DNA of 63,990 bases from a virus. Taxonomy: Duplodnaviria > Caudoviricetes. The notes under the pieces were generated by a model. It was not told the DNA's origin, searched no databases, and saw only the letters and a list, made by a program, of their open reading frames with translations. Shown here piece after piece: positions 40,954 to 63,990 of this stretch. The stretch lies in the IMG/VR virus record IMGVR_UViG_3300010158_000067, positions 1 through 63,990 of that record; one strand, given 5' to 3'. The translations under genes and the position numbers were made by a program. Each line of letters opens with the position of its first letter. The stretch's first letter is position 1.

Positions 40954-42141
40954 ATGAGCCTTTTCAATAAAGCGGAAGATTTAACCATTGAAGAGAGATT
41001 AATTGCCGCGAAGGTGCAGATGCTTATGCGTCTGCCCTTTTTCGGTAGTTTAGCCTCTGGTTTAAATGTGAAGGTTGTGGATTGGAGATTTGACAAAGAG
41101 ACTCCAATGACCGCCGCAACAGATGGAGTTAATTTCTTTTATAATCCAGAGGGTATTAAAGATCGCACGATTCCAGAATTAGTTTGGCTTTATGCTCATG
41201 AAGTTAGTCACGTATGTTGGCAACATTTCATGCGTATGGGAGATCGTAATAAAACACTTTGGAATATTGCGACTGACTATGCGATTAATGGAATTTTAAG
41301 AATTAATAAAATTGGCAAACCACTTGAAAAACATCTAGACGATAAAAAGTTTGATGGAATGGCTGCAGAACAAATTTATGATATTCTTTATAAAGAAGCT
41401 CCAAAGCTTGATTTGGATGCGTTATCTAAAATGCTTGCAGATAAGCATTTAGAGATGGATAGAAATGAAGACGGTTCACCCAAAACCGAAGAACAGATCA
41501 GAGATCTAACGAATAAGATCAAAGAAGATATTGTTAAAGCTACGCAATCAATGGAAGCGGGTAGTATTCCTGCTGGCTTTGATAGACTCATTGAAAGCAT
41601 TGTTAGTCCACAACTTCCTTGGCAAGAAATTTTGCGAGATCGTATTAAATCTAAAATTAAAACAGATTTTACTTTCATGCAACCAAATAGAAGGAGTGGA
41701 AACATGGGAGGCATTATATTTCCAAGCATGACTGTGGAAGATCAAATAGATATTTGTATTGCTATGGATATGTCTGGATCTATTAGTGATGATATTGCTT
41801 CAGAATTTATGTCAGAAATAAATGGTATAATTTCTGAATTTAGATCTTGGAATATTAAAATATGGAGTTTTGACACTAAAGTTTATAATCAAAAAGAATA
41901 CTCTTCAGATGAAAATGCCGACATAATGTCATACCAACCAAAGGGTGGAGGGGGAACTGATTTTGAATGTAATTGGTCTTACATGAAAACCGCTTCCATT
42001 GAACCAAAACTTTTTATCATGTTTACTGATCTTTATCCTTACGATGGATGGGGTGATCCAGATTATTGTGACACATTGTTTATTGGTTACGGAGGATGTA
42101 GAGCAGTTGCCCCTTTTGGAGAAACAATTCATATTAAATAA
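40954..42141 (+). CDS. Metallopeptidase + VWA-like (DUF2201-type) protein
   Basis: TAATDG, HEVSH, WNIATD, DMSGS, GGGGTDF, FTD. Confidence 0.88.
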   Translation: MSLFNKAEDLTIEERLIAAKVQMLMRLPFFGSLASGLNVKVVDWRFDKETPMTAATDGVNFFYNPEGIKDRTIPELVWLYAHEVSHVCWQHFMRMGDRNKTLWNIATDYAINGILRINKIGKPLEKHLDDKKFDGMAAEQIYDILYKEAPKLDLDALSKMLADKHLEMDRNEDGSPKTEEQIRDLTNKIKEDIVKATQSMEAGSIPAGFDRLIESIVSPQLPWQEILRDRIKSKIKTDFTFMQPNRRSGNMGGIIFPSMTVEDQIDICIAMDMSGSISDDIASEFMSEINGIISEFRSWNIKIWSFDTKVYNQKEYSSDENADIMSYQPKGGGGTDFECNWSYMKTASIEPKLFIMFTDLYPYDGWGDPDYCDTLFIGYGGCRAVAPFGETIHIK

Positions 42142-48443: not shown

Positions 48444-48925
48444 ATATAAATTACATAGAGAAAGAGATGGCGAACTTTGGATAGGTTTACCAAATAATGG
48501 TGGAGATATTGGAGATATTGGAAATTTGCTTGAGATTGTGCTTGTATTGAACGAACAACTAGATGAGATAGAGGGGTTGAAACGAGAGATTATTTTATTG
48601 AAATGTGAGATAGGAGAAGATATTTTATGAACATTAAAAATCTAATTATAGATCTTATAGTAGGAACTGTTGTTTTTTGTCTTGGCGCTTATGGAGAACA
48701 TAAACATAACGAAAGACTTGCAATCAAAGCTGGAGTAGCTTATTATGCTGTAGATAAGGATGGTTCACCTCAGTTTAAATTTATTACTGAATAATATGAA
48801 TACGAAATCAACAAAATATATATATGACATATAGAGAATTAAAAGAAAAACTAAAAGAAAAACTAAAAGGAAAACATCACGAATTATTGGTTGACTTCGT
48901 GGATGAACTTATGAGAAGATGAGCC

Positions 48926-49186
48926 ATGCAAGATAACGATTCGGATTCTTTTATTATAGTAGGAAAAATTATGAGTGATATTAAGTCATGTCCATTCTGT
49001 GGAGGTAATGATCTAACTGTTCAACGCAGCTCTGAAGACAGAGAAGGTATTCCTGCTAATATTATTTGCCAAGACTGTGGATGTGCGGGGCCTTGGGATT
49101 ATCTCAGAACAGAAGTCCTAGAAAATGCCTTGAACGAAGATAGAATTCCTGTTAGATTGATCAATCTTTGGAACGAAAGGAAGTAA
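48926..49186 (+). CDS. Lar-like zinc-ribbon protein
   Basis: KSCPFCGG...CQDCG...WNER. Confidence 0.65.
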   Translation: MQDNDSDSFIIVGKIMSDIKSCPFCGGNDLTVQRSSEDREGIPANIICQDCGCAGPWDYLRTEVLENALNEDRIPVRLINLWNERK

Positions 49187-49361
49187 TATGACTGACGAAC
49201 AAATTAACGCGGCAATTGCAGAAGCGTGTGGATGGAAGGAAGTCGAACCTTGGTTAAATGGAGCATCGTAGAAAAGCAAATTACATATTCGCAAGTTAAA
49301 ATATGAACGGAAAAGGATCTAAGCCTCGACCAATTAAAAACATTAAAAATTACATATCAAA

Positions 49362-50326
49362 TTGGGAGCAAATAAATTGGAAGAAGGCGAAATCAAATTC
49401 ACCTTCTACGAACTCAAAGCCATGATGGTTAAAATGGGTTACTACGATAAAATGAGTGACCCAATTTCATTGTATGACTGGCCTGAAATAGGTTTGGAGC
49501 GCATATTAATTAATAATAATAAATTGAATTATGGATGGCTTTTTAAAATCATAAGCAAAGAGAAGTTTGTTCATGCTGTAATCAAATACGATCTTTTATG
49601 AAAAAGAATCAAAAGCAACGCATATGGATGTCTTATGCAAAACTCTCAGAGCTTTTAAAAAGCATGAATGCAGTTGGTGATCCAAATGACACTGGTGTTA
49701 GTAAATTAGCCAATTGGCAGGATATAGGCTTGAAATACATTAGAAAGCCAACAATTAACAAATTCTATTTTGAGATATTGAATAAGGATAAGTTTTTGTT
49801 CGCGACTTTTAAATATTCTTTTAATTTAGATGGAATACATTTTAATTGATAAGTATTTAATGTGGCAGCTTGAGGAAAAGTTTTATACTGATTCGTCTTC
49901 TTATCTAGGTCTGGAGATTGATGAAGCGCTAGAAGACATAGAGAGTGGATGTGGTCTTGAGTATCATGGCATAAGGGAATACGAGATAAATAAGAAATTA
50001 AATCTCGAAGACTACTATTTGTACAAGATAATAGATAAGGAAAGGTTTATTTTCGCGGTTATGAAATATAATCTTGATTATTTGTTTGTAGATCCTAAGC
50101 TACAGTCGTGAATGTTTTAATTAGTAAACATAAAATACTATCCGCTATAAACTCTCATGCTGACGAGTTTGGTGAGGTGCATTTGCTATGGAAATCCTTT
50201 GGTCTTGATTACGTGCGCACAGAACACAAAGAGCATATAGCATTTGGAGTGATAGATAAAGATTTATTGATTTGGTCGATGATTAAATATGGCTTTCAAA
50301 TTGAACCATATAGTAATTCGCAATGA
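49362..50326 (+). CDS. Four tandem members of the small paralogue family (49362, 49598, 49830, 50108)
   Basis: Each has GL followed by F/Y-x-I-x-D/N/S-K...KY. Confidence 0.6.
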
Positions 50327-51453
50327 ACAATGCCTCATAAAAGCCATTTGTACGCATTGTGAGGCGATTGTAGACCCTTATCTAGCGCTTTAGCCACTCT
50401 ACACCAATTGCATTACTAAGTGCCTTGCAACAGAGTAATTCGTTTCCGCCGCTATACGCTAAAACACATAAATCAATAATAAGATTCATTAGAATGAATA
50501 TAAGTTATAATAAAGTTAATAATAAGAGAGAATGGAAGGATAAGATATGGTATAATAAACAATAGAATGTGAAATAAGATTCACGAATTAAACTTCATGT
50601 ATTAGATTTTAATGTTTTAGATGAATTAAAAGTGATTGAAAAACAACAGCCCTCCCTATCTTTCTTTTCGTTCATTTACACTGTAAAATGCCCTGTGGAA
50701 CATTGTTCCACAAGCAAGTCCCGTGCCACAAAATAACCCAAAATATCCCAAAAAATTACTAGACACGGGCCAAATAAGCGTATATACTGGGACAAACTGT
50801 GGCTTGATATAGAACTAAATCGGCGCGAACCAAAAAGTTATTGCATGACGGCCAAATAAAGGCAACAAAAAAAACCCTGTTCGTTAGGGGTAGTTTTAAA
50901 CGCCCGTTTGTTTCGGGCTAATTCATTTTTGACTTTTAATATACTTTTCTTTTGATTCTTTTCTGAGAGCAATCATGCCGCCACTCATAGAGCGAGTCTT
51001 GATCAGAACGTAGTTAAAGAAATATATTGAGAACCAGTTTGACATTTAGTTTTGCGATCCTGAAACGCTTACAAGGCTACTTTAAAACTAGACGCTAACT
51101 GCATCTAATATATTATACACGCAAGAAAAAGAAATTCCAAAAAATTCCAAAAAATTACTAGCCGCGAACCAAATAAGCACTCCGAAAAGGGTGGGGTGGA
51201 TTTCGTCATGCTTCGCGGCCTTTCGTTTGCATTCGCACGATTTCATTTGTTTTCGTTAGATTAGATAAGATCTGGTTATATTTCGAGGAATCAAAAGTTA
51301 ACGTAAATGAAGCAAATAAAGAGTGAGGTGGTGTGTGCCAGGGGCACCCCTGGATCTAGCCGCATAGCAAGTCCCATGCCAAGAGGCATGGGATATTTTT
51401 TTGTTAAAAAGACGTTGACCACCGCATTTGTATCTGCTTTAATTATCACCGTT

Positions 51454-51744
51454 ATGGAAAACATCACTACATCCTCCACCATCACTGAAACCGCAACCAT
51501 CAAGCGTGGACGCGGGCGTCCCGCTGGCAGCAACAGCTTTGAAAATGTGCAGATCAAGCATCTGCTCAATTTCCTTTCTGAAGACGCGAGCATTCCCGTG
51601 TCCAAGATCTGGATGCGCGACACACTCGGTTGCATCATCGAAGCTCGCCCATTGCAGGTTATCAAGAACGATGACAGTGCAGATCATCATGAACTCGGAG
51701 AGAATGAAAAGGTTGAATACGCCTTTGAAACTTTCGAGGAATAG
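51454..51744 (+). CDS. Small AT-hook DNA-binding protein
   Basis: KRGRGRPAGS; likely start MENITT after the TTGACC promoter at 51415. Confidence 0.6.
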   Translation: MENITTSSTITETATIKRGRGRPAGSNSFENVQIKHLLNFLSEDASIPVSKIWMRDTLGCIIEARPLQVIKNDDSADHHELGENEKVEYAFETFEE

Positions 51745-51784
51745 TATTTGACTCTGGTTTTTAATTGCTGTATATTTATTGCTT

Positions 51785-52717
51785 ATGTTTGACAACCTCA
51801 TTGGACAACCCGAAATTAAAAGGCAATTAGAATTCTATTCTAATGCTTACCAGAAAACTTCAGTCGTACCCTTCCTGCTCCTCAACGGTGCTAAGGGTTT
51901 GGGTAAGACTGAGTTTCTGAAACAGTTCAGCAAGTCGCTGACTAATGTGGACGGCAAGCCGCGTCCCATGCTCGAACTCAACAGCTCTACAATCAAGAAC
52001 AATCAAATGTTCTTCGAGCAGATCTTCATGCCGATTGTGCAGGGTAACGAAGTAACTCTTTTCTTTGATGAGTGTCACGCACTCCCCAAGGATCTGGTGA
52101 TGGCTTTCCTGTCTATCACCAACACTGAGCGCACGCCTTTTAAGGAATTTAATTGGCGCGAGTATACTTTCCAGTTTGACTTCACAAAGATTTCTATGAT
52201 CTTTGCGACGACTGAGCTGGACAAGATGTTCCCTCCTCTCAAGGATCGTTTGACTGTGCTTGACTTCAAGCCATACAAAACAAATGAGTTGAGCGAAATC
52301 ATCAAGGGTCGCTTGAAGGATGTTGACTTCGAGGATGGTGTACTCGAAGACATCGCGAGCACCACTCGCGGCAATGCGCGTTCAGCAGTCAAGCGTGCGA
52401 AGGAGATCGAGATCTATTGCGAGACCAACAACTCGGCCACCTTCTTCAAGGAGGAGTGGACTAACCTTCGCCAGATACTTGGCATCAAACCTCTGGGTTT
52501 GTCAAACACTGAAATTCAAGTGCTCGATATTCTCAAGGAGCGCGGTCCATCTACCCTGCAGACTATCGCAGCAGTCACAGGTATGTCACGCACTGCGATC
52601 CAGCGTGACGCTGAGTTGTATCTGCTGCAACGCGGCCTGATGAAGATCAACGGCACTCGCGAAATTACCAAAGCTGGCATGGAAGTACTGTCTGAAGTAA
52701 CAGCGAAAGGTTTTTAA
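51785..52717 (+). CDS. ruvB: RuvB-like AAA+ ATPase (Holliday junction branch migration type)
   Basis: FDNLIGQ, GAKGLGKT, LFFDECH, IFATT...PLKDR, RGNARSA, LGI.PLGL, winged-helix tail E.YLLQRGL...GTREIT. Confidence 0.8.
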   Translation: MFDNLIGQPEIKRQLEFYSNAYQKTSVVPFLLLNGAKGLGKTEFLKQFSKSLTNVDGKPRPMLELNSSTIKNNQMFFEQIFMPIVQGNEVTLFFDECHALPKDLVMAFLSITNTERTPFKEFNWREYTFQFDFTKISMIFATTELDKMFPPLKDRLTVLDFKPYKTNELSEIIKGRLKDVDFEDGVLEDIASTTRGNARSAVKRAKEIEIYCETNNSATFFKEEWTNLRQILGIKPLGLSNTEIQVLDILKERGPSTLQTIAAVTGMSRTAIQRDAELYLLQRGLMKINGTREITKAGMEVLSEVTAKGF

Positions 52718-52767
52718 GAATGTGGGTTGGTGGTAAAGCCTCACTAATGTGAGGTCTGTGAAAACAG

Positions 52768-52799
52768 GAACCCTTGGCTCCGTGAGCCAAGGGTTTTTT
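52768..52799 (+). terminator. Intrinsic terminator after ruvB-like gene
   Basis: AACCCTTGGCTC-CGT-GAGCCAAGGGTTTTTT. Confidence 0.75.
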
Positions 52800-52982
52800 A
52801 TTATTTAAAAATAAACAAAAAGTTAACCAAATAAGGCTAAATAAAGAATATGCCAGGGGTGCCCCTGGCCCAAGCACGAAATCCCCCAACCCTTTCGGGT
52901 TGGGGGACTTATTGGGCGGGGAATTATTTTAATTTGTTTCTAACTAGACACGCGGAGAATACAAGGATCGCAATGATTAGAT

Positions 52983-53534
52983 TCATTTGATTCGAGACCA
53001 TACACCAGTTTCGAGGTTGACAACTTCGAGGTCTTCATGTACGGGGCGTAGAAGCTGACCGTGATGCCACTTGAAGGCTTGCTCTCTTGAAGTTGATGTT
53101 GGCACACCATTAAAATACTTAAAAATTCTGCCTGTGGTGGAGTTCCTGATGATGTGGGTCGCACCTCTTGGGATCATGGCAAACAAGTTGCCATCGTAGC
53201 ATCTTTCGGGTGGTCTGCCCAGCTTCATCATCCACCCTCTCCAGCAGGGAGAATGAGAAAGAACTTTCTTCTCTTCGTACTCCAGAGCGTGCGCCCATTC
53301 GTGGATGATGGTATCAGAGATCTTGTCAATGAAATTCGGAATCCGAATGTTCAGCGCAACGATTCGATTAGAAAGCTCTATGTATTTAGAACCTTTCTTA
53401 ATCACGCACCTACCCATAGCATTTGTCAAGCGGTGATTCCAACGGAATGTCCAGCCTTTTAGCTGCGGATACTTCGCTATGATTTCGTGACTGAGTGAAG
53501 CGTACCTTTCAATAACTTGAGCAATGGTGGTCAT
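52983..53534 (-). CDS. SprT-like zinc metalloprotease
   Basis: MGRC...IELS...TIIHEWAHAL...H...W. Confidence 0.8.
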   Translation of the reverse strand: MTTIAQVIERYASLSHEIIAKYPQLKGWTFRWNHRLTNAMGRCVIKKGSKYIELSNRIVALNIRIPNFIDKISDTIIHEWAHALEYEEKKVLSHSPCWRGWMMKLGRPPERCYDGNLFAMIPRGATHIIRNSTTGRIFKYFNGVPTSTSREQAFKWHHGQLLRPVHEDLEVVNLETGVWSRIK

Positions 53535-53539
53535 ATGTT

Positions 53540-53936
53540 TTAGTCTTCGTCTCTAAACATAACCTCATCTTCGATCCAGTCAATCATATTCAGCAGACCA
53601 TCCATACATTCGCGGCCTTCATCTGTCCATTCAATGCACTTGTCATCCAGAAGGTGATACAAGAATTGTTTTTGTTTGGATAGAAGTTCGGGGCAAACAG
53701 TGATTGCGACATCATGTATTATTTTCATATTAGCAAACTATATTGTGCGCATCATTGTAGCAAGCCGTACCCTCTTCGTCAATCTCAAAAGACTCATCTA
53801 GGTAATGTTCGTTACCCTCATTATTCACGGACGCTTCCAATGCAAGTTCCTTTGCTGCTTCCAACGATTCGGCTTGAACATTGATGGTTCCGTATGTGGT
53901 GTATTGATAAGCAATTTTATATGTTTTCATAATCAA
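53540..53936 (-). CDS. Two small hypothetical ORFs (53540-53728, 53730-53936)
   Basis: Abutting ORFs; second has VQAESLEAAKELA, common in small phage proteins. Confidence 0.6.
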
Positions 53937-53946
53937 TTAAAAGAAG

Positions 53947-54018
53947 TGGTTCTAGCTGGATTCGAACCAGCAATAATTCTTTAGAAGAGAACTGTGATAT
54001 CCCTTTCACCATAGAACC
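53947..54018 (-). tRNA. tRNA-Arg(TCT), no encoded CCA
   Basis: GGTTCTA/TAGAACC, GTTCT-CTTCTAA-AGAAT, GCTGG-TTCGAAT-CCAGC. Confidence 0.88.
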
Positions 54019-54256
54019 ATTGTTCGCTTATGACAATATCAGATCCTATAGGACAGTCAACCAGAAACTTGAAAAGTTTCTGGAGTGGTGCGTAATAATA
54101 GAGCTTGACCAGGGGCACCCCTGGTTGTAGGCAACAAAAAACCTCTGTCCCACAGGGACAGAGGTTCCTCTACTCGGCTCACATTCCTTTCGAGCTACCA
54201 GACATAGGCAGTTTGCCAGCACCTCTCGCTTTTTATCTGAGCGAGATTAAAAAAAA

Positions 54257-54331
54257 TGGTGGATAGGGAGGGACTCGAACCTTCAACCAACGCCTTAAAA
54301 GGGCGCTGCTCTACCATTGAGCTACCTATCC
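54257..54331 (-). tRNA. tRNA-Lys(TTT)
   Basis: GGATAGG/CCTATCC, GCGCC-CTTTTAA-GGCGT, ACCA end. Confidence 0.92.
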
Positions 54332-54397
54332 TTTTGCCAGAGCCTCACCCCGCACAAGCGGGGGAGGATGGATGACAACAAACCACCAACACCGAAA

Positions 54398-54688
54398 TCA
54401 TCTTGCGGACTCGAAGCAGTGCCCAGAGTGGGCATCTAGGTAGCGCCGCAAAGAACCAATGTTTGTCCATTGCACCTGCCTCTGCGCTCTTGCTTTGAGC
54501 CAAGCCTCATCCCCAAGTGGGTAGTAATCGCGAGAATGAAAATCTATTTCTTGAAACGCATCTTCAAACTTCTGAAGCGCTTTCAACGCTTCAAAGTATT
54601 GATGACCCAACTTAGAACCATCATTCCCATTCATGTGAATGAGGGGAAGTATCATTTCAAGATTTTGTTCTGCAATGTATGTTTTCAT
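54398..54688 (-). CDS. Hypothetical phage protein
   Basis: PLIHMNG...HSRDYYP. Confidence 0.65.
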   Translation of the reverse strand: MKTYIAEQNLEMILPLIHMNGNDGSKLGHQYFEALKALQKFEDAFQEIDFHSRDYYPLGDEAWLKARAQRQVQWTNIGSLRRYLDAHSGHCFESAR

Positions 54689-54726
54689 GTTTTTATGTTT
54701 TTATGTTTTTATGTTTTTATGTTTTT
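54687..54726. repeat. Microsatellite (ATGTTTTT)x5
   Basis: Five perfect 8-bp units. Confidence 0.95.
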
Positions 54727-54791
54727 AACTAATTGAAATTGGTAGCTAGGGCGGGACTCGAACCCGCACGCTCTAAAGAGCATCAGATTTT

Positions 54792-55524
54792 CTTACTACT
54801 ATAGCTTTCGCTATCCTTGCGTTGTAGTCTGGACTATATCATCACCTTTGTCAAGAGGTGTCTCGTCTTTAGTCTCTGAACCTTCTCCATTTAAGGAGCT
54901 TGGCTGCTGATTGACCAATTCACTCAATTTTTTAACTTTCGCATTCGTCATTTCTAACCATGCTGTAGTTTGAGAGACTCTAAGGTTATCCCAGCAGTTT
55001 ACGAGATTCTCATTCTGGGATTTCTCCCAGATGACTCGCTGACCTCGCAAAAATTTATGTAATTTTCCATGAGCTTGCCTAGTTATCAACATTAAGTTAT
55101 CTAAATCATTATTAAGTGGATTTTCATCTATATGATGAATAACTTCATTATAAGATAATTTTCTACCTAATAGCTTTTCAGCTAAAACTCTATGTTTATT
55201 TCTAGATGTTTTCGAATCAAAAGAATATTTATTTTTTTCAAAACCTGTTTTGAAACTTTCTTTGTAGCATGAAGGGCAAAGAATTTGTTGCTTTCTCCAC
55301 GCCTTAAAAGAAGATTTGCAGGCTTCGCATTCCGCTGGAAGAAATCGTCTACCTAATTTTTCATAACGATCTTTAGATTTTTTCTTAGCTAAAGAAAGAT
55401 GACAAGTTTTGCAAACTCTTCTTCCTATTTCTCTTGGGCCGCTACATGAAATACATATTAGTTTATCCATGTCTTATATTACACTGAAAGACACAGATAT
55501 TCTATTTTATTTTTGCGAAAAGGC
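54792..55524 (-). mobile_element. Group I self-splicing intron (733 nt) with homing endonuclease ORF
   Basis: Exon ends in U, intron ends in G; core elements AACTGCTGGG (P), AATCAGCAG (Q), TTCAGAGACTA (R), GATATAGTCC (S). Confidence 0.88.
54811..55470 (-). CDS. Intron-encoded HNH homing endonuclease
   Basis: CxxC fingers; HRVLAE...VIHHIDENPLNNDLDNL...H...H. Confidence 0.88.
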   Translation of the reverse strand: MDKLICISCSGPREIGRRVCKTCHLSLAKKKSKDRYEKLGRRFLPAECEACKSSFKAWRKQQILCPSCYKESFKTGFEKNKYSFDSKTSRNKHRVLAEKLLGRKLSYNEVIHHIDENPLNNDLDNLMLITRQAHGKLHKFLRGQRVIWEKSQNENLVNCWDNLRVSQTTAWLEMTNAKVKKLSELVNQQPSSLNGEGSETKDETPLDKGDDIVQTTTQG

Positions 55525-55619
55525 AAGTCTGATGTGTCTGCCATTTCACCACCTAGCCATTGTTGTTAAAGAACTCTGAGTGATACTAACAGACATTCAC
55601 TCTATGTCAACCGAAAAAG

Positions 55620-55695
55620 TGGTGCGCCAAGTTGGGATTGAACCAACGACCAAGGAATTATGAGTTCCCTGCTCTGACCACTGAGCTATTGGCGC
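55620..55695 (-). tRNA. tRNA(CAT), probably Ile2 (lysidine) rather than Met
   Basis: GCGCCAA/TTGGCGC, GGGAA-CTCATAA-TTCCT; D and variable regions resemble ileX-type tRNAs. Confidence 0.85.
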
Positions 55696-55991
55696 GGGAA
55701 AGTTAGAATGTTATCTGGATTCTCCTCATCTACAGAATACCCTAACTCAGTTAGGGCTTTGAGGCAAGCATTTTCATACCATCCTTCGAAGAAATTAAAT
55801 ACCAAAGAATTATCGCTCGAATCAATCAACGAAAACTCTCTGATTTCATCTCCGTCCGTAAGAATAGGAGTTCCATCAGAATAAGTCAAATAGAATCCCA
55901 AATGATTGAGAGCTTGCTCGAAAGCTTCACGCGGATTCAGATCCACCAGTTCGGTGGTGTTTTCCGTTTCGTTTGTGATCGTGTAGGTCAT
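55686..55991 (-). CDS. Hypothetical protein with internal repeat
   Basis: AFEQALNHLGF / ACLKALTELGY; stop lies in the first nucleotides of the tRNA. Confidence 0.6.
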   Translation of the reverse strand: MTYTITNETENTTELVDLNPREAFEQALNHLGFYLTYSDGTPILTDGDEIREFSLIDSSDNSLVFNFFEGWYENACLKALTELGYSVDEENPDNILTFPRQ

Positions 55992-56193
55992 GGGTTCAAT
56001 CTAACACAGAATAAGGAGGACACAACACAAATCTTCACATTTTGTGAAGATTTATAAAGATTAATTAAATAGCTCGTAATAAGGGACTTAGCGGCCAGGG
56101 GTGCCCCTGGGGCAAAAAAAATGCAGGCCGCGCATGGCGCAGCCTGCATTGGGGGGAGAAGCGGCGGGCCGTAACCCGCCGCCCCCATGGGAC

Positions 56194-56961
56194 TTACTCA
56201 GCTCCCACAAGTTCCGAAACGTCAACGGCTTCCACCTCAATGACAGAGGCATGGCCCGCCCGCGTATCAAAGAGACTTTGCATAACCATCGTCCGCGCAG
56301 GGAGTTTCGTCAGGTCTGAACCTTTGAGGTTCTCGGTGACGGAGTTGTACAGGTTCCACAAGGTGGGGCTGTTGAACTCTGGGTGACGCGGAGCTTTGAA
56401 CTCCTGAGTGACGGCGAACACATCGCGAGCAGGAAGTGCCTTGCTCTCAGCAAGTTGCACAGCGAGGGCGCACGCATCATTGAATCCGATCTCGGTCTGT
56501 TGGTAGCGGCTGATCCGCGTTTCCATGTCCGTCCAGTGCGAGAGCAAACGCCCGATAGCTTCAGACAACACACGAGGAATGTCGCGGAGAATGTTTGTCG
56601 TGTGACGGCGAGCGAGCTTGATGTCTGACGAGAAACAGAGATTCTCGCAAACGATCATGCGGTTCCCTACACAAATGGAAGCGGCGAACGTGCGATCATG
56701 CGAGTTGCGCAATCCCAGAACCAGCTTGCGCTCATCCGAATTGATATCGGGGCCAGTGATCTGGAACCCGCCGAAGTAGCGCTGACCGAAACGGCCCAGA
56801 GCGTGCTTCTCTTCGCTGACGGCGTAGCCCGCACGATCCAACGCTTCGAGCGTCTGATCGACCAGAAAGGAATGTGCGATTGGGGTGAAAGACTCAGTCG
56901 CATCAGGCGTGCGGACGGTTGCGAGTTCTTCACGAGTGACGAGGTTTTTTGCAATGATCAT
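56194..56961 (-). CDS. DUF932-like phage/plasmid protein
   Basis: LGLRNSHD...VGNRMIVCENL...RHT...TLWNLYNSVTE. Confidence 0.7.
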   Translation of the reverse strand: MIIAKNLVTREELATVRTPDATESFTPIAHSFLVDQTLEALDRAGYAVSEEKHALGRFGQRYFGGFQITGPDINSDERKLVLGLRNSHDRTFAASICVGNRMIVCENLCFSSDIKLARRHTTNILRDIPRVLSEAIGRLLSHWTDMETRISRYQQTEIGFNDACALAVQLAESKALPARDVFAVTQEFKAPRHPEFNSPTLWNLYNSVTENLKGSDLTKLPARTMVMQSLFDTRAGHASVIEVEAVDVSELVGAE

Positions 56962-57233
56962 TTGATTTGGATGGTTGATGGTTTGAACTAACGAGAACAA
57001 CAATACCACATGCAAAGCGGGTTTCAACACTTTCTTTTGATTTCGTTCATCTTTTTCAATACAAGAACCATGCCAAGCGAAAAATTATTTTTCGCTTGCG
57101 TAATAACGCTTGACAGCCACAGGCCAGGGGTGCCCCTGGGGTTAAACGGGAAAACCCCGCTTTCGCGGGGTTTTGTCCTATCTATCTCTGGAGTAGAGCA
57201 TTGCGCACACCACTAACACGCTGATTAGCAGCA

Positions 57234-57935
57234 TCATACATGAATCACAAACCCAGATTGATCTTGGCGGGCTGGACCTTTTGCACGAAGGCCAACAATC
57301 ACACCTTTGTCATCGAGGAAGCGGAGGTCGTGCTTGTCTCCGTCAACAACTTTCTTTCCTTTATATTCTGAGGGAAGGTCGAAACCTTTCTTTGTGGAGA
57401 ATACGGCGGCAACATTATGCCCAGCGTTCAACGCCAATGCACAGTGAACATGATTGAGTGCAGTCTCACTTCGTGAGAAGGTCAAGTTATAATTGGGAAT
57501 CCCGTGAGATAAACGGGAAAAGCTTTTTGTGTAGTCATAGAATTGTACGCTGGGGAATTGCTGAAATACCGTTTTGCCATTATGTTTGATGCGTTCCCAT
57601 TTCACATCTGAAGTAAGATTGAGTCGAAACACGGGAAGCAGGCTTTTCTTTGCACAGTATTTGATTGCCTTTTCGATTTCAGAAAACAGGTTTTCCATGA
57701 AAGCTGGAATGTTCGCGAAGAATTCTTTTGTTTTCTTTATTCTTGCTTCCTTCACCATGTCTTGCTGGCCGCGTCCAGCAAAATCCAAGCAAGACGCTTT
57801 GCAACCTTCGCTTGCATCGGCGCAAACGTCGAAGCCGCTCAGGTCGCTATGCGCGAAGTGTATGCCATAGGTCATATAACCCATTGCAAGGGATTTCAGT
57901 GTTTTATCGTTCGAGGTGGTCAAGATTGTCTGCAT
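57234..57935 (-). CDS. GP88-like Cys-cluster protein
   Basis: VC..AS.GC...CL..AGRG, FRLNLTSD, QFYDYTK, DGD.HDLRFLD, GLRAKG; start MQTIL after a leaderless promoter. Confidence 0.7.
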   Translation of the reverse strand: MQTILTTSNDKTLKSLAMGYMTYGIHFAHSDLSGFDVCADASEGCKASCLDFAGRGQQDMVKEARIKKTKEFFANIPAFMENLFSEIEKAIKYCAKKSLLPVFRLNLTSDVKWERIKHNGKTVFQQFPSVQFYDYTKSFSRLSHGIPNYNLTFSRSETALNHVHCALALNAGHNVAAVFSTKKGFDLPSEYKGKKVVDGDKHDLRFLDDKGVIVGLRAKGPARQDQSGFVIHV

Positions 57936-58080
57936 GTGAAAGAGAATAGCAAAACAACAGAGAAGCGCAACATAAAAAGGAATAAAAAAACAAACATTAC
58001 GCACTTTGTGCGTAATAGGCATAATGGCGGCCAGGGGTGCCCCTGGCACCACAACCCTTTCGGGCTGTGGGGTTTAGGGT

Positions 58081-58528
58081 TTAGAACCTTTCGTTTTGAT
58101 CTGCGCAGTGGTTGCAGATCACATAAGACCTACGAATAAAAACCCTTTCTTCGCACTGCTTGCAGGTTTTCCATTCACTGTCTTTCTGCATCTGATGGTA
58201 GAACTCAATGTCCTCCTGATCGTTGATTTCGTAGTGACCGAAGTTGTCGTCGTAGAATGATGCCATATTTATTTATTTTTAATTACCAAACTGTTGATTC
58301 AATTTCCTGCGCGTGTTCAGTGCGGATCTTAGCAATAAACGCGAAATGCTCAAGAGCTTTTTCGGTTGTTACGATTCCCTCTTTCGAGAGTTCATGATAA
58401 ATTTCCTTTCGAGTCCAACACTCGACAATCTCAGACCAACCATAAGAGAGATTATATGATGCATTTGCATGGATCTGCACAGCGTCAACAAGGTTCAATA
58501 GCAAGCGGGTTTCGTCAAGTGGATTCAT
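58081..58528 (-). CDS. Two small ORFs: 58283-58528 (MNPLD) and 58081-58266 (zinc ribbon)
   Basis: One cassette; CKQC...CNHC in the second. Confidence 0.6.
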
Positions 58529-58680
58529 TGGACTTTTATTAAAGCATGAGAGTAGCAAGAAAGCAAATAAAAAAAGACAAATATTACGCATCTTATGCGT
58601 AATAGACATGATGCGGCCAGGGGTGGCCCTGGCCATTACGCCCCACAACCCTTTCGGGTTGTGGGGGTTAGGCTTACTCT

Positions 58681-59134
58681 CTACAATCCCACGCTTGTCA
58701 CTTGACAGTTCTTTGCTTTCACTTCCCTGATATTCTCAAGATACAAAGTGCGATAGCCAGCGTTTGTTCTGTCGCCATTCTTGCTGACGGCATAGAGCGT
58801 GACGGTCCCCTTGGGCGCATAATTCGTGCCACCCTTGAGATTCTTCTTGACTCCCGTGCGCACAACGTACCTGCTAACATCACCCAGCTTGTTCCTGTAA
58901 AGAACAGAAAAGAACTTGCCTTTGGTCGATTCGATGATTTGTTGTTTTGTGGTGTTCATATTATTCTGCTTTGATGTCTCTGAAATTGATTTCCCAGTCT
59001 GGCACAAACAAGAAAGTTTGTCCAGTTGGTCTTTCGTATACTGCCATGCAGCCGTTATCTTTTGCGATAATCGCGATATCATATTTTTCAAGTAGAGCTT
59101 TGAACTCCGTGAGGAACTGCTGTTTCGTATCCAT
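58681..59134 (-). CDS. Two small ORFs: 58961-59134 (MDTKQQ) and 58681-58959 (MNTTKQQ, SH3/WYL-like beta pattern)
   Basis: One cassette; GKFFSVLY..K.G..R...RTGV...GYRTL. Confidence 0.6.
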
Positions 59135-59284
59135 GTGAGAATCATAGCAAAACGAAGGAGCGATGCAATAAAAAAGAATAAAAAAACAAACATTACGCAC
59201 TTTGTGCGTAATAGGCATAATGCGGGCCAGGGGCGGCCCTGGCCCCACAACCCTTTCGGGCTGTGGGGGTTGCCTATTTGCACT

Positions 59285-59682
59285 CTACAGGACTACACCC
59301 TTAGGTACAAACAACCTCCCTGAGTAAAGATGCTCTTCAGCGTCTTCATCCCAGTTGAAAAGCTCGTACGAGCCACTTGGGTGCGGCTGCGTCACATAAT
59401 TATCTGAAAGCATCAAATCTTCCAGCCGATTGCTGAAAACAGGAACCATGCCATGCTCGAAGTAAGCATAGATGTTTTCACTGAAGAGGCAATCATTCCA
59501 CTCGATCATTATCGTTTCGTTTTTGGTTTTGGTCATATAAGCAAGTTAGCTGATGTTCGCGGTTAGTCAATCATTTTAATGATTATTTCTTGGATTAGCG
59601 TAGCTAATCCAACGATGCCCAGCGATAAGAAGCCAGCGCATAGGAAGCTGAGGATGAGTTCGAAGCCAGTAAGCAATGCCAT
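59285..59682 (-). CDS. Two small ORFs: 59563-59682 (39-aa membrane peptide) and 59285-59536
   Basis: One cassette; peptide read by hand after a TATAGT -10 box. Confidence 0.5.
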
Positions 59683-59827
59683 ATTTGAACTATACACCCA
59701 ACAGAGCAAGAATCAATTAAAAAGACAAATATTACGCACTTTGTGCGTAATAGCCATGATGCGGCCAGGGGCACCCCTGGGGGGTTCGCCCCACAACCCT
59801 TTCGGGTTGTGGGACTTAGCTTTGTCT

Positions 59828-60302
59828 TTACTTTGTTTGCTTGATGCCTGCCTCGATGAGCATCTCATCGAACTGACTGAGCACCTTGATCTTCGATCCC
59901 TTCAGGGCGAATTCCTTCTTGATCTGGGCGTATGCGGAGCACCCCTTGATGGGATAGATGCCTTTGGTTTCGAGCTTCAGAGCGCTCGCCAGCATCAGGA
60001 GGCGATAAGCGGAGATTGCTTCTGGTGTGTTGAATGTCATATTAGAGCTTGTGAATGTTGATGCCGTTTGCGTTGCAATAGTCAAGAGCTTTTGCAATGT
60101 CTTCTGCCGTTTCCAAGAAGTAGGTCGTGTGACCTTCCTGAAGCGGGTGTTCGATGTTCAATGTCAAGCGGGCTTCGCCGTCTGGCAGCTTGAACGATGC
60201 TGCACTAATTACCTTGCGGTAACTGGTGTCAACAGTCACCTTGCTGTTGATCGGATTGCGGACGTAGGTGGTGCTGAAGCTGGGATGTAGTGTCAATTTC
60301 AT
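59828..60302 (-). CDS. Two small ORFs: 60042-60302 and 59828-60040 (MTFNT)
   Basis: One cassette; ALKLETKG...SAYAQIKKEF. Confidence 0.6.
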
Positions 60303-60489
60303 TGCTTAGGTAAGATACCACATCTGCTCTGGTATGCAATGGCAAAAAGCATTTTTAATCAAAATAAATTACCACACACAAACCCTTGAGCAACAAGGGT
60401 TTACGCAGACGCAGTTCCAGGGGTGCCCCTGGCCATGTGGGCAACAAAAAACCCCGCCGCGAGGCGGGGTTTTTGCTTGACTTGGTCAA

Positions 60490-60750
60490 CTAGACGCTTG
60501 CCACACTGTGATCGAGTTTGTGTAGTTCAGGTGACGGGTCGAGATACCAAGTCTTCGATCTACCCTTTGAGTCAAGCTCATTGAGCGAGAAAAATGCATT
60601 GCTCGCACTACCAATCGTGCTGGGAAAAAACTTTAGGGTTGCACCCTTCGACAGCTTCCTGCTGATATTTGCAACAGAAATGTGGAAATTTTTGTAGATC
60701 ACGCTGTTCGTGGTGGTGTGGGCGACTTTGACTGTTGGTGTGTTCTTCAT
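60490..60750 (-). CDS. Hypothetical protein (MKNTPT)
   Basis: Single-gene cassette with its own promoter and terminator. Confidence 0.6.
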   Translation of the reverse strand: MKNTPTVKVAHTTTNSVIYKNFHISVANISRKLSKGATLKFFPSTIGSASNAFFSLNELDSKGRSKTWYLDPSPELHKLDHSVASV

Positions 60751-60902
60751 ACGCGAGTAAGAATAGCATGTGGCTAGGTGAGCGCAACAAAAAAAGCACA
60801 AAAAAGCAAACATTCACAAACCCTTATGTAATAAGGGTTTGCGCAGCCAGGGGCAGCCCTGGCCCCACAACCCTCTCGGGCTGTGGGGGTTAGGGGGAGG
60901 GA

Positions 60903-61233
60903 TTACTCCTCTTCGCCCCCGAAGAGTGACTCCCACTCTTCAGCGGTGATTCCTGTTTTCAGGAACTCCCGCTCGTCAGCGGAGAGGTTGGGGAAGGCGT
61001 TCTGGATCAGCTCCCCACTTGCCCAAGCGTCAAGCTGGGCTTCGGTGACGGGTAGGTTGAGCGTACGGGTGATGCCAGAAACCATTGAGGTGCGTGTGAT
61101 GTTCATATTAGTCGATGATTTTAACGGTGATGTAAGCAACTGTGGAGAGGATAAGGGTCAGAGGGGCGAATGTAAAGAAAATCTTAAAAAAGACTTCCGC
61201 AACAACCAGCATTTCGTAATTGGCATTAACCAT
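60903..61233 (-). CDS. Two small ORFs: 61108-61233 (membrane peptide) and 60903-61106 (MNITRTS)
   Basis: LIQNAFPNLSADEREFLKTGITAEEW motif in the second. Confidence 0.6.
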
Positions 61234-61394
61234 GTCCAAACTCTACAGCATGGGGATAAAAAAACAATTAAAATTGAAAACAAAAACCATGCCAAACGCA
61301 AATCTTTTTGCGTTTGGACGTAATAGTGCTTGACACGCGGCCAGGGGCAGCCCTGGCCCCACAACCCTTTCGGGCTGTGGGGTTTACCCTTACC

Positions 61395-61646
61395 TTACTT
61401 AGCTAGGTCGAAGAAAGGCCCGCTGAACGTGATGCGGTCAGACTCGAAGTCCATTTTGCGAAACTCGTCCGCTTCGAAGTTTTCTACTTGCCGATCCGCG
61501 TCTTGGATTTCGAGTGCGCGATCTTGAAGTATCCATTCGATATGGGCGCTAAGTTCTTGGAGCGCAGCCACTTGCGCGTCCGTGAGCGCGAGCGAGGCTG
61601 TGTCCTTGATTGTTTCAGTGAGGGCGAGGATGGAGGATGTAACCAT
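61395..61646 (-). CDS. Hypothetical protein (MVTSS)
   Basis: Single-gene cassette. Confidence 0.6.
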   Translation of the reverse strand: MVTSSILALTETIKDTASLALTDAQVAALQELSAHIEWILQDRALEIQDADRQVENFEADEFRKMDFESDRITFSGPFFDLAK

Positions 61647-61784
61647 GCTGGGAATATAAGGTATATAGCCCTGAGTTGCAATAAAAAAAGAAAAAATTTC
61701 CACCTTATCATGTAATAGGGGTAGGCGCGGCCAGGGGCGGCCCTGGCCCCACAACCCTTTCGGGCTGTGGGGTTTATGCGAGTG

Positions 61785-62045
61785 CTACTCGTAGTCTTCA
61801 TCCGTGCCCCAGCCCGCGCTCGCGAGCCACTCCGCGTCCGCGCCGTCATCGGACGGCTCGCCATCGCCCGTGTGCCCGTCATTGCAGGCATCGCAACCGC
61901 GTTCGCAGCCATCGCAGCGCTCGCGCTCGCGCTCGTCAAGCGCGAGTTCTTCACGCATAGCCTCGACGGCCATCGCGATCTGCGCGAGGCAGTCGCCGTT
62001 CATGTGGTTTTCGCGGATGAGGGAGATCAGGTCGTTCGTGGTCAT
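61785..62045 (-). CDS. Small acidic protein (MTTND)
   Basis: CDGCERGCDAC and C-terminal LASAGWGTDEDYE. Confidence 0.65.
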   Translation of the reverse strand: MTTNDLISLIRENHMNGDCLAQIAMAVEAMREELALDERERERCDGCERGCDACNDGHTGDGEPSDDGADAEWLASAGWGTDEDYE

Positions 62046-62241
62046 GGGGCAATTATAGCAAAAAACTGTGATTTGCAATACGCTATTTCCGTGCCAATTA
62101 AAAACATTTTTATATAGGCACTTAATAGAGCTTGACTCGGGCCAGGGGCGGCCCTGGGCGTTTGTCAAGTATTTTTTCTTGTTTATTCTGCACAAAAAAG
62201 CCCCGCCTTTCGGCGGGGCTAAGTGTCTGCGCGGGGCGCAC

Positions 62242-62514
62242 TTACACCAGATGCGCGATCTGGTGGTCGAGCGCGTCCGATTCTGCCGCGAGCTTGGCCT
62301 CGACAAGGCGCTCGTACTCAAGCGCTTGCGATCTGGACTCAGCGCGTTCGTCCAGAAGCCAGCGGGCCTCATGGACAGCCGCAAGCGCGAAGTCCGTGAG
62401 CCCGTGGAGAAGTTCGACATCGCCCTCGCTCAGGCGAGCGGGGTTGAGGTCGCGCACATATGCGCGCATGGCGGTGAGGGTTGCGGTGAGGGTGGAGGAG
62501 CGGTTCGTATCCAT
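62242..62514 (-). CDS. Hypothetical helical protein
   Basis: Single-gene cassette. Confidence 0.6.
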   Translation of the reverse strand: MDTNRSSTLTATLTAMRAYVRDLNPARLSEGDVELLHGLTDFALAAVHEARWLLDERAESRSQALEYERLVEAKLAAESDALDHQIAHLV

Positions 62515-62788
62515 GCGCTAATTGTAGCAAAGAATTGCTGTTTTGCAATACGCTATTTGCGCGCCAAGTGAAAATGTATTTTCAAAGATTAACTGTTTCA
62601 TGCGTAATAGGCATGGTTTGGGCCAGGGGCCCACCTGGAATAAACCTAAAAGTTTCAAAGATTAACCGTAATAGGCTTAATAGTAGCACTATTGACCAGG
62701 GGCGGGCCTGGATTTTGTCAAGCTTTTTTTTCACTTTTTTTCACAAAAAAGCGAGGCACCTAAGCACCTCGCTTTGTGCTACTTGCGC

Positions 62789-63125
62789 CTACTTGACAAG
62801 CCTAGTTGTAACCCACACAGCGCTAACCATTAGCACTGTGATTGGTACGAAGTTAAGGGCGATTTGAGTGAGGCCTTGGGCGATAGTGATAAGGTCTTGC
62901 ATATTAGGTAGTTAGGTAAGGGAGTTGGGGCGGGCACCTAAGTGCCCGCCGTTGTGTGTGTTAGATCTTTTCTTTGATGTCGCCAACCCATACAGAGTGG
63001 CCGCTTGTTAGTGTTATGTAAATGCTTCCAATGTAGGCAATTACGCCTTCGAAGCCGATAGCTTCGAACTCGAAGCGAGCCTTGAGCTTGACCTTGTCAC
63101 CGATAGAGAGGGAGAGCGTTTCCAT
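62789..63125 (-). CDS. Two short ORFs: 62961-63125 (METLSL) and 62789-62902 (membrane peptide MQDLI)
   Basis: Read by hand; below the ORF-track cutoff; TATAAT 7 nt before ATG 63125. Confidence 0.5.
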
Positions 63126-63275
63126 GTGTGCGATTATAGAGAATGAGTGCAGAGAAACAAGCGTTTTTTTATCTTTTGATTAGTGCTGCACCTAGCACCA
63201 TGAGACATAGTAAGATGTTCATTTTAAGGAAGTTAGGGAGAGGCTCGCAAGAGCCTCTCTCTCAGCTACTTAAGA

Positions 63276-63521
63276 CTACTTGGTTTCCTTTTCCAGAGCT
63301 TCAGCCAACGCGCATAACACGTTGTCTGAGAACGATTTACCTCCTCGCTTAGAAGCAAGAGTGAGGAACTTGGCGAGGTCATTGAGCGCTTCAGGTTTAC
63401 CTCTGTGCAGATCGGCAATTGTCAATCTCATTTCCTCTTGAAGGCAATTGTCTTTTGCCCACTGCGCGAAGTTGGTGGAGTTGAACATGTTCTCTAATGC
63501 GTTTGCGAAGATCGTCTGCAT
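63276..63521 (-). CDS. Hypothetical protein
   Basis: TATTCT 6 nt before ATG. Confidence 0.6.
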   Translation of the reverse strand: MQTIFANALENMFNSTNFAQWAKDNCLQEEMRLTIADLHRGKPEALNDLAKFLTLASKRGGKSFSDNVLCALAEALEKETK

Positions 63522-63570
63522 GAGTAAAGAATAGTTTATTTGATTTGAGAAACAAGCTTTTTTTTCTGCT

Positions 63571-63810
63571 TTACAGCATTTCCTCCGTTTCGGTTACTGT
63601 GCGGGTGATCTTGAACACGCCCACCTTTTCTGTTGGCACATCGAAGATTTCATGCATCGTGTGCTTGTAAGCGTAATGCCTGAAACGATTTGGAGTGCGA
63701 GTCTTTTCGAGCACCAAACCAGCGGGAATGATAAGGTCGCCGCCGTAGTGCTCGCCCGCGTTGTGGGCTTCGGTCAGTCTGTGCTCGTAGCGTGTCGTTG
63801 TCGTTGTCAT
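63571..63810 (-). CDS. Hypothetical protein (MTTTTT)
   Basis: TATCTT 6 nt before ATG. Confidence 0.6.
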   Translation of the reverse strand: MTTTTTRYEHRLTEAHNAGEHYGGDLIIPAGLVLEKTRTPNRFRHYAYKHTMHEIFDVPTEKVGVFKITRTVTETEEML

Positions 63811-63963
63811 GAGAGGAAGATACCACATTGAGAGCGTAGTGCAACATCTTTTTTGTGTTTTTATTGTTTTTTTTTGAGCGCTTGTGCGCATGGCGTGTCA
63901 ACAACAATTTCCATGCCAAACCAAAAAGTTTTTTGATGCGTATACGCTATGCGCATAGTGCAT

Positions 63964-63990
63964 CCCCCCCCCCCCCCCCCCCCGGGGGGG
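63964..63990. other. Terminal homopolymer C20-G7
   Basis: Read directly at the window end. Confidence 0.9.

Follow-up and report, generated by a model that had tools for sequence, protein, structure and literature searches.

A 16-bp palindrome at the core of putative terminator-promoter modules between small-gene cassettes of a freshwater phage

Why should one 16-bp palindrome recur between the small genes at one end of a phage contig, and nowhere else in it? The question is raised by the last 13 kb of a 63,990-bp DNA of an uncultured tailed phage, the complete IMG/VR record IMGVR_UViG_3300010158_000067, which is referred to here as the window; the record is classed as linear and its completeness is estimated at 49%. 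A preliminary description of this DNA had read the region as an array of gene cassettes bounded by the palindrome, and had proposed an integron-like cassette exchange system and/or a co-ordinated operator array. We suggest, with a probability of roughly 0.55, that the array combines two things: mobile terminator-promoter modules in a new phage clade, comparable to the promoter-early stem-loops (PeSLs) of T4-like phages, and a palindrome that acts as a protein-read boundary or operator site.

The window contains 14 exact copies of CCAGGGNNNNCCCTGG, with none in 100 dinucleotide-preserving shuffles. A one-mismatch search added 62623-62638 and 62696-62711, giving 16 places where 0.26 were expected. 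All 16 fall within 51338-62711; the scan of the remaining sequence that had been recommended earlier found no copy in 1-51337. Every copy is intergenic relative to the genes read from the sequence and starts with CCAGGGG on the + strand, and the centres on that strand are GCAC, GTGC, GTGG, GCGG and GCAG, plus two degenerate copies. The copy number, the confinement to intergenic positions in the last 13 kb, the invariant left arm and the set of asymmetric centres were thus all as the preliminary description had given them. Literature searches, which were not exhaustive, returned nothing on this motif or this phage clade.

Related contigs were found by pattern scans of viral contigs plus searches within the records so found. 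Six related phage contigs share palindrome arrays, and together with the window they hold 81 copies (16, 18, 15, 5, 2, 10 and 15), all of them inside GC-rich islands. The centres over the 81 copies are CTAC (27), GTGC (13), GCAC (11), CCGC (6), CTGC (5), GTAG (5), CCAC (4), CTCC (3), GGAG (2) and five singletons, and they are lineage-specific, with GYRC types in contigs G000 and G001 and CTAC in G002, G003, G006 and G007. Since this set was selected by a regular expression, the invariance of the outer pentamers is partly a product of the search pattern; at the inner arm positions, which the search left free, an alignment of 69 modules showed G6 in at least 90% and C11 in 69/69. A RuvB-like protein encoded beside the array served as a marker for more distant relatives, of which 1471 were found in metagenomes, on contigs of up to ~150 kb; contigs of ~147-157 kb carry the marker. 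Among 80 metagenome loci located through this neighbour, the palindrome was present in 8 of the 10 with at least 83% RuvB-like identity and in none of the 70 with at most 62%. In the close relative L270 it takes the form CCAGG(C/T)CT(A/G)G(A/C/G)CCTGG, which includes the perfect palindrome CCAGGTCTAGACCTGG.

What surrounds the palindrome is equally regular. Read on the minus strand, the unit begins with one or more genes or a tRNA, followed by a hairpin (H1), the palindrome, 5-9 nt, GTCAAS in some modules and YTATTACG. It continues, in many cases through a second hairpin (H2), with a T-rich UP-like tract, TTGCnn, 16-17 nt, (TG)nTAnnnT, 6 nt and the ATG. H1, which abuts the palindrome, is GC-rich, often has a GAAA loop and usually lacks a T run. 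Besides the palindrome, the modules carry the motifs GTCAAS and CTATTACG. The unit first described (palindrome, YTATTACR element, sigma70 promoter, small genes, hairpin) was essentially right and is refined here, but the palindromes at 51338 and 52853 deviate from it, both lacking YTATTACG. Promoters without any palindrome are found at the four small genes furthest upstream (62789-63810).

That the palindrome belongs to the module was also seen when modules were located without it. The pattern GTCAAN-N2-3-YTATTA found 20 sites in G006 and G007, and an intact palindrome lies 6-9 nt upstream of 19 of them; the exception is a palindrome whose 4-nt centre has been deleted. The geometry is rigid in G002, G003, G006 and G007, with the start of GTCAA 6-8 nt and YTATTA ~14-17 nt past the palindrome; in the common form of these contigs a run of at least 5 T (most modules) follows at ~37 nt, and the ATG ends at ~91-94 nt. 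An AT-rich tract of the type AAATTTTT stands at a fixed distance past YTATTA in the 69 aligned modules. A TTGnnn-N16-18-TAnnnT-N4-9-ATG arrangement opening an open reading frame (ORF) of at least 30 aa is present in 42 of 68 modules, most with an extended -10 TG. In these 42, the spacing from -10 box to ATG is exactly 6 nt in 33, and the distance from palindrome centre to ATG is 96-98 nt in 16 and 121 nt in 6. Consensus scans found 26 promoter-like sites (16.0 +/- 4.0 in shuffles) and 29 terminator-like sites (14.3 +/- 4.3 in shuffles), the latter including four H2 hairpins with T runs. Folding of the intergenic RNA gave three tandem hairpins; of the 6 units folded, 5 had z-scores between -4.1 and -6.0, and the sixth had -1.9. 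Of 65 H1 hairpins compared, 49 are more stable as sense RNA, 9 as antisense RNA and 7 equally so, as expected of an element acting at transcript level. The stems of H1 and H2 vary freely in sequence, and the palindrome arms stay fixed.

The short distance between -10 box and ATG predicts that the cassette mRNAs are leaderless. A Shine-Dalgarno-like word precedes only 2 of 29 genes outside the island (body genes), and in many body genes a TATAAT-like box stands only a few nucleotides upstream of the ATG. Translation that starts leaderless or independently of a Shine-Dalgarno word may thus be a general feature of this phage and its host.

The composition of the palindrome is itself informative. 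It reads CCAGG-N6-CCTGG, i.e. two inverted CCWGG pentamers about one helical turn apart, and all 32 CCWGG words of the window's island lie inside palindromes. With these masked, CCWGG is the most under-represented of 986 5-mers in the island (0 observed, 12.1 expected from a maximal-order Markov model), and it is again the most depleted of 1016 5-mers when six islands are pooled (19 observed, 60.1 expected). GGWCC is second in the pooled islands (9 against 38.2 expected) and third in the window's island (3 against 10.6). CCGG occurs 0 times in the island (16.3 expected) and once outside it (28.5 expected) in the window, and 0 and 0 times in G007 (11.9 and 22.8 expected). From these word counts, the phage appears to be under restriction- or modification-type pressure against such words. 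That 32 CCWGG words are nevertheless kept in the palindromes indicates strong positive constraint on them; the avoidance elsewhere, together with the fixed arms, favours recognition of the palindrome as a DNA sequence over a role as a mere hairpin.

The relatives differ in what stands between the modules. Crude cassette maps show that order and content differ in every relative, several families being duplicated or lineage-specific; in the window and in G001, for example, the GP88 cassette has the DUF932 cassette downstream of it, and in G002 and G007 upstream. We compared flank identities for inter-genome pairs of palindromes, classed by the homology of the neighbouring genes. For the background, in which neither gene is homologous (2383 pairs), identity was 0.53 upstream and 0.64 and 0.57 downstream. 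It was 0.60 upstream and 0.75 and 0.70 downstream where only the downstream gene is homologous (34 pairs), 0.68 upstream and 0.66 and 0.60 downstream where only the upstream gene is (46 pairs), and 0.82 upstream and 0.88 and 0.81 downstream where both are (19 pairs). Sequence upstream of the palindrome thus travels with the upstream gene and sequence downstream of it with the downstream gene, so that homology switches at the palindrome. Three clean one-cassette indels were found: between G006 and G007, identity is 70/70 up to the palindrome on one side and 70/70 from the palindrome on the other, and in two further cases the junction is at or beside a palindrome. Contigs from lake run X5, weak as witnesses for their short sides, skip or reorder cassettes with joints at or near palindromes (61354 to 62648, 54124 to 54257 and 60369 to 61731).

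These features can be accommodated as follows. The palindrome would be the sequence-constrained core of a composite terminator-promoter module of ~105-140 bp, and such modules would punctuate a GC-rich, hyperplastic island of early ORFan and tRNA genes. In each module, H1 would close the upstream unit, and the T-rich UP-like tract with a strong sigma70-type promoter would open the next. Given their mutual resemblance, the modules could recombine by homology and so delete, insert or reorder whole cassettes, and a dedicated recombinase would be unnecessary. For the palindrome itself, the probable role is that of a boundary or operator element bound by a dimeric protein, of phage or host, which would mark or insulate the boundaries of early units or control the units co-ordinately. 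The operator array for a dimeric protein, one of the two alternatives proposed at the outset, is therefore our best guess for the palindrome, and a guess founded on sequence constraint only. The likeness to PeSLs noted at the same time fits as well, since modules of stem-loop, AT-rich tract and sigma70-type promoter flank ORFan cassettes that are gained, lost and reordered in relatives.

Several observations weigh against this interpretation. The inner positions of the L270 palindromes vary and are often unpaired, e.g. CCAGGCCTAGCCCTGG. The modules of L277 (83% RuvB identity) are palindrome-free and have only CTCCAGGTTCTT, in 3 of 4 promoter-like matches, where it sits between true terminators (with T runs) and promoters; the palindrome is hence dispensable in some lineages. 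Of 42 rearrangement boundaries in three pairwise collinear chains, only 9 come within 30 bp of a palindrome, against ~10% by chance, and the many replacements inside cassettes mean that it is not the exclusive junction. Aligning relatives, the check proposed earlier, showed the homology switch and the three indels at the palindrome but left 33 of the 42 boundaries more than 30 bp from any copy. At ~96-121 nt before the ATG, the palindrome centre is rather distant for a repressor of the classical kind. The depletion of CCWGG could be simple restriction avoidance, CCGG and GGWCC being depleted too. The promoters, terminators and leaderless starts are predictions from sequence pattern alone. Finally, no palindrome-binding protein was found. 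The RuvB-like protein and p96, the product of the gene paired with it, were considered and rejected as candidates, since both occur in marine relatives where the palindrome is absent and so do not co-vary with it; and no helix-turn-helix repressor family was seen among 25 of the 32 families matched by 72 body ORFs, nor among 30 island or adjacent proteins, about half of the genome being missing.

Other explanations of the palindrome must be set beside the boundary or operator site. It might act purely through a stem-loop in RNA or DNA, as terminator, attenuator or stabiliser of 3' ends, and have been made uniform by common descent and gene conversion, which we consider unlikely though by no means negligible. 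It folds as a 6-9-bp hairpin beside H1 in every unit folded and directly follows H1 or a tRNA 3' end, and its lineage-specific centres fit homogenisation within genomes; G/C-tract stem-loops of PeSLs, moreover, terminated transcription in reporter assays (PMC2839356). However, H1 and H2 drift with compensatory changes and the palindrome arms do not, the palindrome has no T run, and the frequent mismatches of inner pairs in L270 leave a 5-bp stem. In L277 the non-palindromic CCAGG motif follows true T-run terminators, so that it would rarely be transcribed, and strict avoidance of CCWGG elsewhere in the island would be unexpected for a mere hairpin. The same avoidance can be read as the mark of a host CCWGG-specific enzyme, the palindrome then being a methylation-dependent switch, a decoy, or a place where breaks readily form and recombination is stimulated. 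Dcm-like methylases and EcoRII-like nucleases have this specificity, the palindrome reads CCAGG-N6-CCTGG, CCWGG is the most depleted 5-mer with palindromes masked, and the avoidance of CCGG and GGWCC points to restriction or modification pressure; marine relatives lack the palindrome, and L277 retains a single CCAGG at the equivalent position. But no such methylase or nuclease was identified, and the central A and T are fixed into a true inverted repeat, which a CCWGG reader would not need, making this a very unlikely explanation.

The integron-like alternative of the preliminary description, in which the palindrome is the crossover site of a site-specific recombinase that moves single cassettes as circles, would account for the inverted arms around a variable 2-4-bp centre, for the three one-cassette indels with junctions in or adjoining the palindrome, for the homology switch there and for the copy with exactly the 4-nt centre deleted; the sole inverted unit, the RuvB operon, is also bounded by two palindromes. 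Yet each cassette has its own predicted promoter, those 33 boundaries lie away from any palindrome, and a 16-bp site is short relative to known recombinase core sites. Neither PF00589 (tyrosine recombinase; the control matched 14/14 genomes) nor PF00239 (serine recombinase or resolvase) matched in any of 5 related contigs, though these are 25-59% complete. The earlier statement that the window has no recombinase holds at the Pfam level for the same two families, a RuvB homologue being present between the first two palindromes. Besides, the modules share ~100 bp of homology, enough for the homologous route shown for PeSLs (PMC2839356). Recombinase-driven exchange is thus not supported by the tests run, with half of the genome missing, and we judge it quite unlikely. 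With equal doubt we regard a variant that is integron-like without an integrase, in which a dedicated protein would read the palindrome, insulate early units and target strand exchange to cassette boundaries, perhaps involving the p96/RuvB-like pair; the cassettes so moved would bring their own promoters. Least probable is a role as upstream activator sequence for an enhancer-binding protein at sigma54-type promoters in the modules. Its basis is the motif TGGCAYG-N4-TWGY, with 14 copies on the transcribed strand in the islands of four contigs and, as read from module sequences, a palindrome ~70-80 nt upstream. The sigma54 consensus has TTGC where most of these copies have TTGT or TAGC; the motif is found in a minority of modules (5/16 in the window), the same modules go on to a sigma70 promoter spaced for a leaderless start, and no PF00158-type activator was seen among the families listed for the proteins scanned.

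Some further motifs deserve mention. Examples of the sigma54-like motif in the window are at ~57050, 61290 and 62095; a perfect one, TGGCACGGGACTTGCT, is just outside the island at ~50719-50735 on the minus strand, and one further copy is on the other strand. At the island edge (50700-52900), YTTATTTGG(Y) followed by TAGTAAT or TTAAC occurs in five copies on the minus strand (~50780, 50850, 51170, 51320 and 52830), in the place held by YTATTACG in other modules. Three readings of module motifs were rejected. A promoter for an extracytoplasmic function (ECF) sigma factor, GTCAAS-N16-18-CGTAA, has 19 copies, confined to the islands of G002, G003, G006 and G007, with none in the window, in G001 or outside islands. 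As a -35 element for TATTAC, the palindrome would stand at differing distances, 17 nt for one subfamily of modules against 11-13 nt for a second. Taking GTCAAGAACTATTA as a site for integration host factor does not fit the consensus. The marine relatives L322, L325 and L331 (~60% RuvB-like identity) lack the GC palindrome and repeat TTTAAA-N4-TTTAAA or AAATTT-N4-AAATTT directly upstream of a TTGAC-type -35, with up to 12 distinct sites in 13.6 kb; some have a -10-to-ATG spacing suggestive of leaderless genes. TTTAAA-N4-TTTAAA was rejected as an analogue of the palindrome, as it stands directly upstream of the -35 and looks like an UP tract.

The island (51300-63960) is transcribed from the minus strand except for one + strand operon, and its GC content is 0.39-0.52; that of the window is 0.26-0.40 until ~50 kb and 0.39-0.52 from there to the end. 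Palindrome 1 (CCAGGGGCACCCCTGG, 51338-51353), with no YTATTACG nearby, is upstream of the + strand promoter of this two-gene operon, which lies between palindromes 1 and 2 and is kept in freshwater and marine relatives. The first gene (51454-51744, +) encodes p96, a 96-aa protein without a Pfam family that is always paired with the RuvB homologue in relatives and has a KRGRGRP motif, which we take to be AT-hook-like. The second (51785-52717, +) encodes a full-length RuvB homologue with AAA+ and C-terminal winged-helix domains (match to RuvB in PDB, E 4e-16, residues 2-287). Palindrome 2 (52853-52868), which has no promoter after it, is between this operon and the convergent SprT-like cassette (52983-54018, minus), which encodes tRNA-Arg (53946-54018), proteins of 66 aa (53730-53930) and 62 aa (53540-53728), and a 183-aa SprT-like protein (52983-53534). 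In order of coordinates, palindrome 3 (54109-54124) precedes a cassette (54257-55991, minus) with a 101-aa gene (55686-55991), tRNA-Met (55620-55695), an intron-split tRNA, a 96-aa gene (54398-54688) and tRNA-Lys (54257-54331). The split tRNA (54740-55565, minus) holds a group I intron (Rfam RF00028, 60.5 bits, 54816-55066) carrying an HNH endonuclease ORF (54811-55470, PF13392). By eye, the exons give a tRNA-Leu(UAA) whose anticodon loop contains the intron; ARAGORN made no call. The insert is absent from the corresponding place in G001, where the 219-aa ORF has no match.

Palindrome 4 (56095-56110) is followed, in order of coordinates, by the DUF932 gene (255 aa, 56194-56961, minus) and palindrome 5 (57124-57139), after which come, read on the minus strand, GTCAAG, TTATTACG, a hairpin and the sigma54-like TTGGCATGGTTCTTGT. 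The GP88-family gene (PF17338, 233 aa) is at 57234-57935 (minus), and palindrome 6 (58031-58046) has H1 at ~58047-58075 and H2 (TATTACGCACAAAGTGCGTAATG plus a T run) at 58017-57995. The remaining cassettes, all on the minus strand, consist of one or two small genes: 81 aa (58283-58528) and 61 aa (58081-58266), both ORFans, at 58081-58528; then, beyond palindrome 7 (58617-58632), 57 aa (58961-59134) and 92 aa (58681-58959) at 58681-59134; beyond palindrome 8 (59227-59242), 39 aa (59563-59682) and 83 aa (59285-59536) at 59285-59682; and beyond palindrome 9 (59765-59780), 86 aa (60042-60302) and 70 aa (59828-60040) at 59828-60302. Palindrome 10 (60417-60432) has no YTATTACG after it. The ORFan that lies next, of 86 aa (60490-60750), has its closest G001 copy at a different place in the array. 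Palindrome 11 (60847-60862) adjoins a cassette at 60903-61233 with genes of 41 aa (61108-61233) and 67 aa (60903-61106). Single genes of 83 aa (61395-61646), 86 aa (61785-62045) and 90 aa (62242-62514) follow palindromes 12 (61341-61356), 13 (61731-61746) and 14 (62142-62157), respectively. At palindrome 14, CTTGACA-N5 before the palindrome pairs with the downstream GTCAAG to form a larger inverted repeat. Palindromes 15 (62623-62638) and 16 (62696-62711) are degenerate, each with one arm mismatch. Of 20 small proteins scanned, 15 from the cassettes and 5 encoded just upstream of the island (47001-50111), 19 have no Pfam family.

The metagenome runs that carry the window sequence are labelled freshwater or lake. 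The window encodes lambda-type tail proteins (a 2605-aa Phage-tail_3 protein, tail protein L and minor tail proteins), enzymes of nucleotide and sugar metabolism, an ECF-type sigma factor, a transfer-messenger RNA (tmRNA) and six tRNAs. The tmRNA gene (26387-26812, +) scores 84.9 bits with Rfam, and ARAGORN gives a tag peptide ending in VEAAV. The sigma factor gene (Sigma70_r2 and r4_2, 39311-39823, +) adjoins one for a MoxR-like ATPase (39860-40951), beside which a 395-aa protein (40954-42141) matches phrog_1314, annotated as HNH endonuclease. No close isolated phage was found in the phage collection: near-identity searches matched tRNAs only, and protein searches gave distant relatives only. 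Scanning bacterial genome contigs with the composite pattern was uninformative on host or prophages, the matches listed being single ones in unrelated taxa. In G002, G006 and G007 the island is internal, with + strand genes for PhoH, an ERCC4-type nuclease and the large terminase (TerL) beyond it. At its end (63963-63990) the window has a run of ~20 C and then G (C20G8), and contig depth rises ~10-fold in the last bin. Given the internal position of the island in those three contigs, this homopolymer probably arose in assembly or sequencing, and it does not have to mark the end of the genome.

How does this array compare with known systems? PeSLs are described as composites of ~100 bp in which a sigma70 early promoter is combined with an AT-rich tract and with a stem-loop of G/C tracts (PMC2839356; PMC4122927). 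They are reported to be concentrated in hyperplastic regions of the T4-like phages RB49/phi1, PST and nt-1, to flank ORFans there, to act as promoters and terminators of transcription, and to produce indels and mini-circles through homologous recombination (PMC2839356; PMC4122927). The present modules resemble PeSLs in being repeated intergenic composites of ~100 bp with a predicted stem-loop, an AT-rich tract upstream of the -35 and a predicted sigma70-type early promoter, in flanking small ORFan genes of a hyperplastic region, and in that relatives differ by indel or replacement of cassettes, in some cases at the elements, with no dedicated recombinase found in the contigs searched. They differ in that the phage, with its lambda-type tail protein L and 2605-aa Phage-tail_3 protein, is not T4-like, and in their fixed geometry, five classes of stem-loop position being described for PeSLs. 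Further differences are the presence of up to three hairpins per unit, a core that is a nearly fixed 16-bp palindrome of two CCWGG words avoided elsewhere, the extra GTCAAS and CTATTACG motifs, the lack of a Shine-Dalgarno sequence with the ATG 6 nt after the -10 box, and an island 10-20 GC points above the rest of the genome.

For the palindrome itself, the nearest analogue is the stoperators, which, in the case of L5, are asymmetric sites distributed genome-wide in temperate phages, with a monomeric immunity repressor as their reader. For cluster A mycobacteriophages, numerous copies of a single short site are reported (PMC9283540). The likeness lies in the many intergenic copies across a gene block and, for stoperators, in one protein reader that also stops elongation; unlike them, the present site is a palindrome that keeps to a single island, and neither a repressor nor an integrase came up in the protein scans of this phage. 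The host-takeover module of the Bacillus phage SPO1 occupies ~13 kb in the terminal redundancy and consists of small early genes with strong host-type promoters and terminators; to our knowledge, no shared palindrome or shuffling module has been described for it. Both are ~13-kb blocks of small, here putatively early, genes in groups with their own promoter and terminator, but the palindrome island is internal in three contigs. In integron attC arrays, unrelated small genes share one orientation, alternate with imperfect palindromes and vary cassette by cassette. The present array is likewise in one orientation, separated by palindromes and variable by cassette between relatives; however, no integrase was found in the 5 contigs searched, its cassettes have their own predicted promoters and are not promoterless in this respect, and its palindrome is a fixed 16-bp sequence, whereas attC is defined by structure and variable in sequence.

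PeSL-type mobile regulatory cassettes were described for T4-like myoviruses, and the same evolutionary device would here be at work in an unrelated, abundant freshwater clade. The signature is sharper than that of PeSLs, with a near-fixed boundary palindrome made from an avoided word, predicted leaderless early genes and a GC-rich island in an AT-rich genome. The array may therefore offer a tractable system for studying how phages reshuffle fast-evolving accessory early genes (host takeover, anti-defence) yet keep them expressed. It also opens a second question, whether a protein reads the cassette boundaries; if so, the palindrome at the core of the PeSL-like modules of this clade would be a compact genetic part that could serve as insulator or operator.

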